Source of the DNA: Escherichia coli
GTDB lineage: Bacteria > Pseudomonadota > Gammaproteobacteria > Enterobacterales > Enterobacteriaceae
Direction: 5' to 3' (one strand)
Assembly: GCF_045037415.1 (NCBI RefSeq)
Contig: NZ_CP173438.1
DNA: 64,000 nt
Numbering within the stretch: the first letter of the stretch is position 1; every line of letters starts with the position of its first letter. The position numbers were made by a program, and so were the translations under genes. Positions 3,209-5,699 of the stretch are shown one piece after another. Under the pieces are notes generated by a model. The model saw nothing but the letters and a program-made list of their open reading frames with translations. It was not told the origin of the DNA and did no database searches.

Positions 3209-3775
3209 ATGCCTAAATCTTACACACCAAACTGGTTTTTTACCGCTTTACTTGACAATCACATCAATCAAATGATGGCACGCTATTCCTGCCTGCGGGC
3301 CTTACGGATGGATTTCTTCTACAGGAAAGATACGCCTGATTTCTTACAACCTGATCACCGCTGGCTTGAATTGCAGTTGCGTATGCTGCTGGAGCAGGTG
3401 GAACAATTTGAAAATATCGTTGGCTTCTTCTGGGTGATTGAATGGACGGCTGATCATGGTTTTCATGCGCATGCGGTTTTCTGGATCGATCGTCAGAGAG
3501 TTAAAAAAATATATCCCTTTGCGGAGCGGATTACGGAATGCTGGCGGTCTATTACGCATAACAGCGGTTCGGTGCACCGTTGTACATATCAGCCGCATTA
3601 TACATACAACATCAACATCCCCGTGCGTCATAACGATCCCGGGAGCATCGATAATATTCGCGGTGTCCTGCATTATCTGGCGAAAGAAGAACAAAAAGAC
3701 GGGCTGTGTGCCTACGGTTGCAATGAAGTTCCTGAACGGCCTGCTGCAGGGCGTCCTCGTAAGCCTCACTTCTGA
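3209..3775 (+). CDS. YagK/YfjJ-family (inovirus Gp2-like) island protein
   Basis: 188-aa ORF with HAHAVFW motif typical of this family, common in P4/CP4-like islands; identity by recall only. Confidence 0.55.
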   Translation: MPKSYTPNWFFTALLDNHINQMMARYSCLRALRMDFFYRKDTPDFLQPDHRWLELQLRMLLEQVEQFENIVGFFWVIEWTADHGFHAHAVFWIDRQRVKKIYPFAERITECWRSITHNSGSVHRCTYQPHYTYNINIPVRHNDPGSIDNIRGVLHYLAKEEQKDGLCAYGCNEVPERPAAGRPRKPHF

Positions 3776-3991
3776 AGCTTAAGGCCTGAGCCTCCGCTCC
3801 TGGAAACACTCCGTCGGTAAAACCTTACCGCCTTGATTAATGATGTGAACCGAAGTCAACGGAGATCATTCACCCTGAACCTGCATCCAGTGTTCTTTCC
3901 CTTATCTTCCCGTTCTGCTTCAGTTTTTCACTTATTCCATCAATCTCATCCGCAAGCCATAACACGTCAGTTCATTCACGGGTAGGACGCA

Positions 3992-4597
3992 TTGTGGGTT
4001 GCGCATAACGGAACATATCTTATGAATGCTATTCCTTATTTCGACTATAGCCTGGCCCCCTTCTGGCCGTCTTATCAGAGCAAAGTCATCGGCGTCCTTG
4101 AGCGTGCGCTGCGTGAGCAGTCCGGCTCCCGGATACGGCGGATCCTGCTTCGTCTGCCGTGTGAATATGACAATACCTTCAACAGCAGAACGACCTGGTT
4201 TGGTATGGATTTTATCGAAACCGTCAGTGCGCTGATGAATGCAACACCCGGACGTGACCTCTGCTGGCTCCTGACCCGTCATCCTGAAAAGCCGGAATAC
4301 CACGTGGTGCTGTGTGTCAGACAGGAGTATTTCGATGGCCCTGAACTGGACCGGCTGATTCTGGATGCCTGGAGCAACGTACTGGGTTTCGCGTCACCAG
4401 GTGAAGCAAAGCCGTACCAGAAGCAGATCACCCGGGATGTGGTATTGGACAGTCGTTCACCGGACTGTGAAGACATCCTCAAAGAGTTGATATGGGCGTT
4501 CAGTGATTTCGCCCGCGATCGTCGTGGTGTGTGCGATCCGGAAGCCCGTTGCCTCGCCGGTAATCCCGGCTATCCCGGATCTGCAGGACCGTTCTGA
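3992..4597 (+). CDS. YagK/YfjJ-family-like protein (paralogue of 3209-3775)
   Basis: 201-aa ORF with similar architecture and a YHVVLCV motif; start codon uncertain. Confidence 0.45.
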   Translation: MWVAHNGTYLMNAIPYFDYSLAPFWPSYQSKVIGVLERALREQSGSRIRRILLRLPCEYDNTFNSRTTWFGMDFIETVSALMNATPGRDLCWLLTRHPEKPEYHVVLCVRQEYFDGPELDRLILDAWSNVLGFASPGEAKPYQKQITRDVVLDSRSPDCEDILKELIWAFSDFARDRRGVCDPEARCLAGNPGYPGSAGPF

Positions 4598-4665
4598 AAG
4601 CTCGGTTCAGCATCTTTCCCTGCATTCGCACAAACTTCATAAATCTCACAAAGGACATTCTGACC

Positions 4666-4899
4666 ATGTTGACCACAACAAGCCACGACAGCGTGTTACT
4701 GCGTGCCGACGATCCCCTGATCGACATGAACTACATCACCAGTTTCACCGGCATGACCGATAAATGGTTTTACAAGTTGATCAGTGAAGGCCATTTCCCG
4801 AAACCCATCAAGCTGGGCCGCAGCAGCCGCTGGTACAAAAGTGAAGTGGAGCAGTGGATGCAGCAGCGAATCGAGGAGTCACGAGGAGCAGCAGCATGA
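4666..4899 (+). CDS. AlpA/Vis-family phage-type transcriptional regulator (excisionase-like)
   Basis: 77-aa ORF; ...TGMTDKWFYKLISEGHFPKPIKLGRSSRWYKSEVEQWM resembles the AlpA helix-turn-helix; start may be the internal Met. Confidence 0.55.
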   Translation: MLTTTSHDSVLLRADDPLIDMNYITSFTGMTDKWFYKLISEGHFPKPIKLGRSSRWYKSEVEQWMQQRIEESRGAAA

Positions 4900-5150
4900 A
4901 ACGTGTTGCAATGCCGGCGCTGGTATTGCGGAAATCAGCCCTGTCCCCGATGCTGGCGACACTCCCGCTCATCTTTCTGCTGACTCCTCTGGTCTGCCAA
5001 CTGTTTGTCATCATTTCCTGACTGATTCGTCATTCCCTTCGTCCCGCCAGTCACTGGTGTTTGTATCGTACCGTGCCGGTGTTGATGTGCGTTTTCCGTG
5101 TGTCTGCACCGGCTTAACAAAATTCAACAGGGTTTGAAAAGGAACATTTC

Positions 5151-5699
5151 GTGCAAATAACCGAAGCCTTAATTTCAGAGCCGGGAGACATCCGGCGTTT
5201 TGTTCAGCAGGCGGTGGACCACTGGCCAAATCTGTTGGCATTTCACTTCACACTCTATTCGGCAGAAGGAAACATCAACGGGCAACAGATTCATGCATTC
5301 TGTACTTCCTTTTACCGACAGGTGCACGAACGTATTACTGAGCGTAATCACACGGCCAGTCCATCCTCGCCGGTGGTATTACGCTGGTTGCGGGAACAAT
5401 ATGGAGGAGCAACAATTCGATGCCTGTTGCTGCTCAGCCAGACGAGTATTTGTCACCCGCGAGCCAGTGTCACAGTTGATGAACAATGTTCGCAAGTGGT
5501 GGATTTACTGCAACAGAGCTGGCAGGTGATAAGTGCTGGTGGACAATGCCGGGTGGAAAGGTGTTTTCGGGTTGCCCGGGGTGATACATCCGGCCAGTAT
5601 GTTGCGTTAAAAACAGTCGCATTGTCTCTGGGGTTACCGGTTGTGACCGCCATTACCCATCGTCCGGTACAGCGCTGTACACTGATTACAGCTCAGTGA
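5151..5699 (+). CDS. Hypothetical protein, possible third YagK/YfjJ-like paralogue
   Basis: 182-aa ORF with AFHFTLY motif analogous to the other two paralogues. Confidence 0.4.
   Translation: MQITEALISEPGDIRRFVQQAVDHWPNLLAFHFTLYSAEGNINGQQIHAFCTSFYRQVHERITERNHTASPSSPVVLRWLREQYGGATIRCLLLLSQTSICHPRASVTVDEQCSQVVDLLQQSWQVISAGGQCRVERCFRVARGDTSGQYVALKTVALSLGLPVVTAITHRPVQRCTLITAQ

Follow-up and report, generated by a model that had tools for sequence, protein, structure and literature searches.

The 64,000-nucleotide stretch of Escherichia coli DNA analyzed here (contig NZ_CP173438.1), herein referred to as the window, contains three similar-sized open reading frames around an AlpA-like gene at positions 3209–5699. 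This locus raises the questions of whether the three proteins are related to each other and what such a block does in a genomic island. The initial annotation described three YagK/YfjJ (Gp2-like) paralogues in an integrative element, and considered their triplication to be unusual and a possible sign of decay. The genes themselves are all present: ORF1 encodes 188 amino acids, ORF2 191 or 201, and ORF4 182, with the AlpA-like regulator located between ORF2 and ORF4.

Relationship of the Three Proteins to the YagK/YfjJ Family

The YagK/YfjJ C-terminal domain family (Pfam: PF11726, formerly DUF3296) includes yagK of CP4-6 and yfjJ of CP4-57 in E. coli K-12, and its members are named by PGAP as 'inovirus Gp2 family protein' or 'YagK/YfjJ domain-containing protein'. 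In the literature, only annotation-level mentions of this family and no experimental paper were found. Profile searches of PDB sequences detected no relatives. The invariant motifs of the canonical proteins are W-x-R-E, H-Y-H (on the central strand), and Y-L-A-K (near the C-terminus).

Pairwise BLASTP between ORF1, ORF2, and ORF4 detected no similarity (E 0.18–33), and thus the resemblance of their motifs alone is no better than chance. Direct hhalign comparison of the family profiles gave E-values at the control level for ORF1/ORF2 (0.16) and ORF4/ORF1 (0.42) and a value that can be called only suggestive for ORF4/ORF2 (0.0021). The homology was resolved through a hub, the canonical YagK/YfjJ profile (A6), which was compared with each family profile by hhalign; an unrelated DUF2913 profile was used for the controls (E 0.14 and 0.31). 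Collinear matches to the canonical profile were found for the families of ORF1 (E 2.7e-10, 175 columns), ORF2 (E 4.1e-13, 162 columns), and ORF4 (E 2.9e-11, 142 columns). Since the family profiles match the canonical profile far better than the controls, the proposed membership holds, including that of ORF2. At the level of sequence, remote homology to the YagK/YfjJ ('inovirus Gp2') proteins is shown for all three. That the three ORFs are unrelated and resemble each other by chance is extremely improbable and already contradicted: the empty BLASTP result and the position of the string quoted for ORF4, which is not the homologous one, would fit this explanation, but homology is supported by the hub comparisons (E 1e-10 to 1e-13 vs. 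0.14–0.31) and, in agreement with them, by the transitive links from HMM and BLAST searches.

The window proteins share with YagK and YfjJ a size class of about 190 amino acids, profiles collinear over 142–175 columns, and an island setting beside AlpA. Unlike the members of this family, none of the three reaches the Pfam cutoff alone. The HMM search suggested by the initial annotation thus gave a divided answer, with sub-threshold or absent scores for the single proteins but matches to canonical YagK/YfjJ for the family profiles.

ORF1 (3209–3775, + strand) encodes a predicted HUH-type Rep-like protein of the REP_ORF2-G2P/YagK-YfjJ superfamily. Its best Pfam match is PF23343 (REP_ORF2-G2P), the replication-associated HUH proteins of filamentous phages. 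The scores of ORF1 itself are below the cutoff for both PF23343 (24.3 bits vs. 27.8) and PF11726 (19.9 vs. 25.8). Its homologues at 95% identity (e.g., P0211) bear precomputed matches to both families and are named 'rolling circle replication-associated protein' or 'inovirus-type Gp2'.

ORF2 (4022–4597, + strand) is labeled as 'hypothetical' in RefSeq and encodes 191 amino acids from the RefSeq start (ATG, 4022) or 201 from an alternative start (TTG, 3992). No above-threshold match was found for it in Pfam, NCBIfam, or PHROGs. Among 1.84 billion representatives, phmmer detected just two distant relatives of full length, and the ORF2 family is nearly restricted to E. coli. One relative of ORF2, P0198 (35% identity, E 3.5e-14), exceeds the PF11726 cutoff (41.8 bits vs. 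25.8). Judging by these profiles, this 'hypothetical' protein is a highly diverged YagK/YfjJ-domain paralogue. Its AF2 model has a pLDDT of 84.0.

ORF4 (5151–5699, + strand) belongs to PF27752 ('UCP030791') and is a YagK/YfjJ-related paralogue. Nothing usable was found with ORF4 alone in Pfam, NCBIfam, and PHROGs; all of its homologues have a precomputed PF27752 match. Weak PF11726 matches were found in 8 of the 22 members of the ORF4 family, and no other family recurs. ORF4 is similar to an 'inovirus-type Gp2' protein of a Klebsiella plasmid (L003:3986–4552; BLASTP E 2e-13), and relatives from the family of the latter match canonical YagK at 3e-10 and 4e-10. The AF2 model of ORF4 has a pLDDT of 84.7 and a pTM of 0.82. 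Structural matches do not discriminate, as equal scores are reached by many folds of the ferredoxin-like and palm types.

Other genera contain separate orthologues of each of the three paralogues. ORF1, ORF2, and ORF4 are three separate, anciently diverged subfamilies, not recent duplicates.

Catalytic Residues of the Three Paralogues

The three proteins had been brought together by a shared H-hydrophobic-H motif. All three quoted strings are present, but a true HUH motif was found only in ORF1, where HAHAVFW corresponds to residues 86–92. The HUH set of ORF1 is complete (E78, H86-A-H88, and Y156-L-A-K159), and E78, H86, H88, Y156, and K159 are invariant across the ORF1 family. Thus, ORF1 retains the invariant E, H-U-H, and Y-L-A-K of YagK/YfjJ. 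Its C-terminus bears a basic GRPRKP tail, of which GRPR is invariant in the family.

In its sequence, ORF1 has the acidic residue, HUH, and YxxK pattern of HUH Reps, a group of single-tyrosine nucleases that more broadly includes SIRV1 ORF119, the N-terminal domain of parvovirus NS1/Rep, and microvirus VP4. Unlike HUH Reps, ORF1 contains no helicase or other domain. Unlike the REP_ORF2-G2P genes of filamentous phages, the genes in the window are located on a chromosomal island; among 50,697 phage records, there were just two matches, both weak. A canonical YagK gene is also present on a 4.5-kb 'Escherichia phage' record, which is an unverified contig.

The string quoted for ORF2, YHVVLCV, corresponds to residues 93–99. 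The HUH position of ORF2 reads E-Y-H, with a single His, and that of its relatives reads C-Y-H or F-Y-H. Instead of YLAK, the tyrosine motif, ORF2 contains DFAR, and its family has D-F/M-A/V-R there. Because of this degraded HUH motif and the replaced tyrosine motif, ORF2 is predicted to be catalytically inactive.

For AFHFTLY of ORF4 (residues 30–36), the aligned segment in the canonical proteins is the N-terminal 'lRVDLR' strand rather than the HUH strand. Both HUH histidines are absent: the HUH position is I-R-C in ORF4 and C-K-M or C-R-M in its relatives. The ORF4 family also has no conserved Tyr at the YxxK position, and ORF4 retains DHWP, FTL, and LRWL-E. The acidic residue, the His-U-His pair, and the Tyr-x-x-Lys motif are thus shown by the alignments to be kept by ORF1 alone; unlike canonical YagK/YfjJ, ORF2 and ORF4 have neither the histidine pair nor the tyrosine motif.

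Gene Neighborhood, Distribution, and Selection

The gene between ORF2 and ORF4 (4666–4899, + strand) encodes a 77-amino-acid AlpA-family winged-helix regulator, which is excisionase-like. The earlier AlpA assignment is correct, with a score for PF05930 (Phage_AlpA) of 40.8 bits vs. a threshold of 21 (E 2e-10) and a match to the PHROG 'excisionase and transcriptional regulator' (E 6e-10). In a comparison with PADLOC defense-system models, AlpA had only a weak match (PDC-M06B, E 4.8e-5), and ORF1, ORF2, and ORF4 had none.

The alpA gene is followed by a 41-codon ORF (4896–5021, + strand; 'hypothetical protein' in RefSeq), which is doubtful as a gene. Its place is taken in other genera by two zinc-ribbon genes (DUF7828 and Zn_ribbon_11). 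A zinc-ribbon remnant in the alpA-ORF4 spacer was considered and rejected, as tblastn found no trace of it in the window; in some other E. coli copies, a faint trace was found in this spacer (E 0.013–0.017). Downstream, a gene for a ProQ/FinO-family RNA-binding protein (5718–6062, − strand; PF04352, 80.7 bits) is convergent with ORF4 and is a constant neighbor of the block in E. coli copies (L001, L002, L019, L020, and L021). The regulators near the block are AlpA, the ProQ/FinO protein, and an H-NS paralogue.

The 246-nt spacer between ORF1 and ORF2 (3776–4021, no strand assigned) is conserved about as well as coding sequence, with a mean identity among six copies of 93.8% vs. 92.0% for ORF2 and 90.9% for ORF4. 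Folded as single-stranded DNA, it has z-scores of −2.65 (+ strand) and −2.82 (− strand). This spacer is a possible promoter, operator, or origin. No convincing origin or oriT was found in it by analysis of repeats, promoter and terminator patterns, Rfam, which gave no match, and DNA folding; a single 17-nt inverted repeat and weak hairpins were all that the search yielded.

The island contains a gene for a tyrosine integrase (31036–32226, − strand), which adjoins tRNA-Sec (32525–32619, − strand). A tyrosine integrase beside a tRNA gene, together with AlpA, characterizes P4-like or CP4-57-like elements, so the integrative-element setting proposed earlier was borne out. Like AlpA of CP4-57 and of P4-like elements, the AlpA in the window is a PF05930 protein of a tRNA-linked island with a tyrosine integrase; unlike them, it is located about 26 kb from the integrase and between Rep-like paralogues. 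No primase-helicase gene (P4 alpha/YfjI-type) was found in or beside the block of this island. In a related island (L019), a YfjI-family gene is located upstream of ORF1, a place that is occupied in the window by IS remnants and a gene for a restriction endonuclease. IS fragments abound in the surrounding island, so this copy may no longer be mobile. For the tmRNA islands of Pseudomonas, AlpA and an inovirus Gp2-like gene have been reported as likely core genes (PMC12595487).

Of the 5426 complete E. coli genomes, 1303 contain at least 80% of the length of the four-gene block; the median is two places per genome, and the gene order is fixed in all 1303. In other genera, modules with two paralogues were found on Klebsiella IncFIB/HI1B plasmids and in the chromosomes of Yokenella, Siccibacter, Mixta, and Serratia. 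These consist of a Gp2-type gene, alpA, the two zinc-ribbon genes, a PF27752 gene, and a DUF2913 gene. The E. coli block shares with this Klebsiella-type module alpA, the downstream PF27752 paralogue, and an upstream Gp2-type gene. In contrast, it has two upstream paralogues (an ORF1-type gene and ORF2) instead of one, has no zinc-ribbon pair, and ends at the convergent ProQ/FinO gene instead of DUF2913. Relatives of the module are also located on large conjugative plasmids of Klebsiella and E. coli. The block is therefore a widespread and already partly annotated island module, not an oddity of this window, and the triplication can no longer be called unusual.

All four genes were shown to be under purifying selection, with dN/dS of 0.13 for ORF1, 0.16 for ORF2, 0.11 for alpA, and 0.31 for ORF4, and their reading frames are intact in six independent copies. 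These values contradict the suggested decay. Accordingly, the idea that a replication or mobilization module was recently triplicated and then decayed is very improbable: the missing catalytic residues in two of the three copies, the IS fragments that fill the surrounding island, and the frameshifted pseudogenes in some plasmid-borne copies (L004 and L007) would agree with it, but it is already contradicted by the selection data, the orthologues of each paralogue in other genera, the fixed gene order, and the similarity between the paralogues, which is absent in BLASTP and at or near the control level in direct hhalign.

Possible Function of the Block

The HUH Y-nucleases are enzymes that nick single-stranded DNA and start rolling-circle replication or transfer. 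With slightly less than even confidence, we read the block as the conserved regulatory and replication/mobilization core of a selC tyrosine-integrase island with a CP4-57-like backbone, composed of AlpA and three single-domain Rep-like paralogues with a predicted HUH fold. AlpA would promote excision of the island. On the circular island, ORF1 could then act as a site-specific single-strand nickase, and the nick would start either rolling-circle copying or, in a relaxase-like manner, transfer that depends on a helper plasmid. The role of ORF2 and ORF4 may be that of non-catalytic DNA-binding partners or regulators of the nicking step. No helicase or coupling-protein gene was found within the block.

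A real but unlikely alternative is that the three proteins are DNA-binding regulators only, with the whole family, including ORF1, exapted from a Rep ancestor. Together with AlpA, H-NS, and ProQ-like proteins, they would then control the excision of the island or the expression of its genes, and no nicking or replication would occur. Several observations agree with this: two of the three paralogues have no catalytic residues and are still under purifying selection, the neighbors are all regulators, the block contains no origin, helicase, or transfer gene, and the invariant GRPR tail of the ORF1 family resembles a DNA-binding hook. However, the strict invariance of E, H-U-H, and Y-x-x-K in the ORF1 and canonical families is hard to explain without catalysis.

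Conjugative relaxases also belong to the HUH nucleases, and Rep-related relaxases are known in integrative mobilizable elements. ORF1 could thus nick an oriT of the excised island, which would then be transferred by a co-resident conjugative plasmid, with ORF2 and ORF4 as relaxosome accessories. A mobI(A/C)-like gene in the same island (15404–15790) and the relatives of the module on conjugative plasmids point in this direction. Nevertheless, such relaxase-type mobilization appears improbable: no relaxase Pfam family was matched, no oriT was found, a coupling protein is absent, and mobI is located about 10 kb away with IS elements between it and the block.

The reading of the block as a replication/mobilization core can be extended to a distinctly improbable and more specific form, in which an active ORF1 nickase and the dead ORF2 and ORF4 form a heteromeric machine of one enzyme and two pseudo-enzymes that replicates or hands over the island circle after AlpA-triggered excision. 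If so, the tRNA-linked pathogenicity islands that are common in E. coli would not be passive cargo but elements that replicate autonomously or can be mobilized.

About one quarter to one half of complete E. coli genomes contain the block, often as several copies, inside islands that bear virulence and resistance genes. The assignment of ORF2 to YagK/YfjJ and the retention of the nuclease residues by only one paralogue lead to a concrete hypothesis, according to which one nickase and two non-catalytic partners would act in the excision, replication, or mobilization of pathogenicity islands.

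YagK/YfjJ-type paralogues around the AlpA-like gene

ORF1 (3209-3775, + strand, 188 aa), ORF2 (4022-4597, + strand, 191 aa from the ATG start used in RefSeq or 201 aa from a TTG at 3992) and ORF4 (5151-5699, + strand, 182 aa) are all present as initially described. The gene between ORF2 and ORF4 (4666-4899, + strand, 77 aa) scores 40.8 bits with PF05930 (cutoff 21), a solid sequence-based assignment to the AlpA family. The initial annotation regarded the three flanking proteins as YagK/YfjJ (Gp2) paralogues. For the proteins taken singly, this could not be confirmed: pairwise BLASTP found nothing significant (E-values from 0.18 to 33), ORF1 fell slightly under the Pfam cutoffs for REP_ORF2-G2P (24.3 vs. 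27.8 bits) and YagK_YfjJ_C (19.9 vs. 25.8 bits), and ORF2 and ORF4 had no above-threshold match in PHROGs, NCBIfam, or Pfam, the last in a copy older than PF27752.

At the level of families, however, all three proteins were connected to YagK/YfjJ. Relatives of ORF1 (45-95% identity) have precomputed hits to PF23343 and PF11726 and are named "rolling circle replication-associated protein" or "inovirus-type Gp2" in their sources. The ORF2 family is very narrow: a search of 1.84 billion representative proteins gave only two distant full-length relatives, of which P0198 (35% identity, E = 3.5e-14) clears PF11726 at 41.8 bits. PF27752 is carried by all ORF4 relatives in precomputed annotation, and a weak PF11726 match was found in 8 of 22 ORF4-family members, with no other family recurring. 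Additionally, ORF4 is matched by an "inovirus-type Gp2" protein of a Klebsiella plasmid (BLASTP, 2e-13); when searched locally, members of that protein's family from Siccibacter, Serratia, and other genera matched canonical YagK/YfjJ proteins with E-values between 3e-10 and 4e-10.

A profile built from eight canonical YagK/YfjJ proteins was compared with each family profile. It matched the families of ORF1 (E = 2.7e-10, probability 96.8%, 175 columns), ORF2 with canonical sequences excluded (4.1e-13, 97.9%, 162 columns), and ORF4 (2.9e-11, 97.2%, 142 columns). Against an unrelated DUF2913 profile, the values were 0.14 (0.4%, 42 columns) for the canonical profile and 0.31 (0.2%, 23 columns) for the ORF4 family. 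Direct comparisons between the three families gave E-values of 0.16, 0.42, and 0.0021, at or near the control level, and the families are thus very far apart. The family-level and profile-profile evidence settles the matter: the AlpA gene is surrounded by three YagK/YfjJ-type paralogues, as initially annotated.

Gp2 or YagK/YfjJ labels for ORF1 and ORF4 already exist in some RefSeq records; ORF2 is "hypothetical" in every record fetched. In Pseudomonas tmRNA islands, a gene so labelled is reported, along with AlpA, as probably part of the core (PMC12595487). No paper with a test of the YagK/YfjJ family was found by literature search, the family being known there only as an annotation label.

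Catalytic-type residues and predicted folds

Single-tyrosine HUH nucleases combine an acidic residue, a His-hydrophobic-His metal site, and a Tyr-x-x-Lys motif. By analogy with this established superfamily, the invariants of canonical YagK/YfjJ proteins (R-V-D-L-R, W-x-R-E, H-Y-H, and Y-L-A-K) are to be read as the same pattern. The HUH-like motif initially ascribed to all three proteins holds for ORF1, in which HAHAVFW contains H86-A-H88; together with E78 and Y156-L-A-K159, these residues are invariant in the ORF1 family. It does not hold for ORF2, which has E-Y-H at the metal site (C-Y-H or F-Y-H in its two distant relatives), H at the acidic position (D in the same relatives), and D-F-A-R in place of Y-x-x-K. 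Nor does it hold for ORF4: its AFHFTLY pairs with the N-terminal R-V-D-L-R strand rather than the HUH strand, the HUH position reads I-R-C, without histidine (C-K-M or C-R-M in relatives), no tyrosine is conserved at the Y-x-x-K position, and only the acidic E82, within L-R-W-L-R-E, is kept. Given this residue distribution and strand alignment, one paralogue looks enzyme-like and the other two look like non-catalytic derivatives. The ORF1 family also has an invariant G-R-P-R at its C-terminus (ORF1 residues 178-186, AAGRPRKPHF), a basic tail similar to the AT-hook-type minor-groove DNA-binding motif.

AlphaFold2 predicted, with confidence, an alpha-beta sandwich for both ORF2 (pLDDT 84.0, pTM 0.84) and ORF4 (pLDDT 84.7, pTM 0.82). 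Equal scores were obtained from GGDEF, polymerase palm, and other ferredoxin-like folds. In a viral model library, named hits were mostly Rep, NS1, VP4, or "Inovirus Gp2", every one with E >1e-3. Profile searches of PDB sequences found no solved structure of any relative. The predicted folds are consistent with an HUH relationship, not decisive for it.

Distribution, conservation, and island context

The set had been viewed as an unusual triplication, possibly reflecting decay; neither view is borne out. Of 5426 complete E. coli genomes, 1303 have the 2.5-kb block at ≥80% of its length and 2965 have parts of it, the median number of places per genome being two. Frames are intact across six independent copies, with median dN/dS of 0.13 (ORF1), 0.16 (ORF2), 0.11 (AlpA), and 0.31 (ORF4), and the copy studied here is not decayed. 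Copies full of frameshifts and stops were found in two small records labelled E. coli plasmids (CP088396.1 and CP088625.1), which are either decayed or of low sequence quality.

A related module (a canonical or ORF1-type Gp2 gene, AlpA, two zinc-ribbon genes, an ORF4-type gene, and DUF2913) was found elsewhere in Enterobacterales: Klebsiella IncFIB/HI1B plasmids, Yokenella, Siccibacter, Mixta, and Serratia. In these genera, two tandem paralogous DUF7828 + Zn_ribbon_11 genes lie between AlpA and the ORF4-type gene (L003, a Klebsiella plasmid, 3087-3910; also L011, L012, L014, and L015), whereas in E. coli copies this place holds no more than a short ORF of doubtful status (4896-5021). One E. 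coli protein, P0167, is an ORF4-type protein with a zinc-ribbon fused at its C-terminal end.

Immediately upstream of the block, intact E. coli islands carry a fourth paralogue, canonical and 243 aa long, plus a YfjI-family gene, in this order in strain YZ_2_2 (L019:1799-4461). In strain 219 (NZ_CP020514), which is 100% identical over 2800-6300, the fourth paralogue (L024:20749-21480; PF11726, 134 bits) lies ~5.7 kb upstream of ORF1, a position just outside the window. The YfjI place is occupied here by a restriction endonuclease gene and IS256/IS21 fragments. An H-NS/StpA-like paralogue (518-958) upstream of the block, a ProQ/FinO gene (5718-6062, - strand) convergent with ORF4, and nearby genes for a 118-aa hypothetical protein (6343-6699) and an ECs1377-family protein (7078-7737) accompany the block in other E. 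coli islands. Such co-travelling neighbours suggest a conserved regulatory backbone larger than the block.

The island lies on the E. coli chromosome and is bounded by tRNA-Sec (selC; 32525-32619, - strand), with a selC-proximal tyrosine integrase gene (31036-32226, - strand). The region 26772-32226 also contains tia (invasion; 26772-27518), a phosphoethanolamine transferase gene (27693-29195), and a TPR protein gene; deeper in the island are an IS1 element and another integrase gene, which is truncated. Judging from these features, the island appears composite, part Tia-PAI-like element and part CP4-like backbone. It has a defence and addiction cargo made up of a complete type I restriction-modification system within 18314-25380 (hsdR 18314-21550, hsdS 21550-22836, hsdM 22836-24815, all - strand), followed by a RelB/DinJ antitoxin gene. 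Two identical ISEc45 copies (IS110 family; 11187-12320 and 12734-13867) lie in direct orientation inside an IS66-family element. Strain 219, identical in other respects, has one copy there, and the window therefore derives from another isolate or assembly.

Possible working of the block

Excision or expression of elements of this kind is promoted by AlpA-type proteins, as established for CP4-57 and as cited in PMC12595487. Homology, catalytic-type residue distribution, purifying selection, conserved gene order, and island context are demonstrated here; the working model is an inferred one: the AlpA-type protein would promote island excision or gene expression, and ORF1, a predicted nickase, would nick the excised circle, so that rolling-circle copying begins or a helper plasmid gains a relaxase-like point of entry. 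ORF2 and ORF4 would be non-cutting partners that bind to DNA or to ORF1. The main rival to this model is that the whole set consists of regulators only. The nickase model has a variant in which the block serves mobilisation only, and a mobI(A/C)-like conjugative transfer gene in the same island (15404-15790), adjoining a RhuM-family gene (15848-16882), fits it loosely; by analogy with SGI1-like elements, this gene hints that the island or part of it may be mobilisable by IncC-type plasmids. PADLOC models did not point to any known defence system in the block.

No replication origin was found by searches for repeats, promoter/terminator patterns, and Rfam families or by DNA folding of the ORF1-ORF2 spacer, which is the only lead. 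This 246-nt non-coding spacer (3776-4021) is conserved like coding sequence (93.8% identity among six E. coli copies) and, as single-stranded DNA, folds somewhat better than its shuffled versions do (z = -2.65 and -2.82 for the two strands). It could contain a promoter or operator, encode a small RNA, or be where the Rep-like protein nicks.

The block is a common, partly annotated backbone module of islands and no anomaly, to which two modest additions are made here: the placement of ORF2 in the family and the retention of nuclease residues in only one of the three paralogues.
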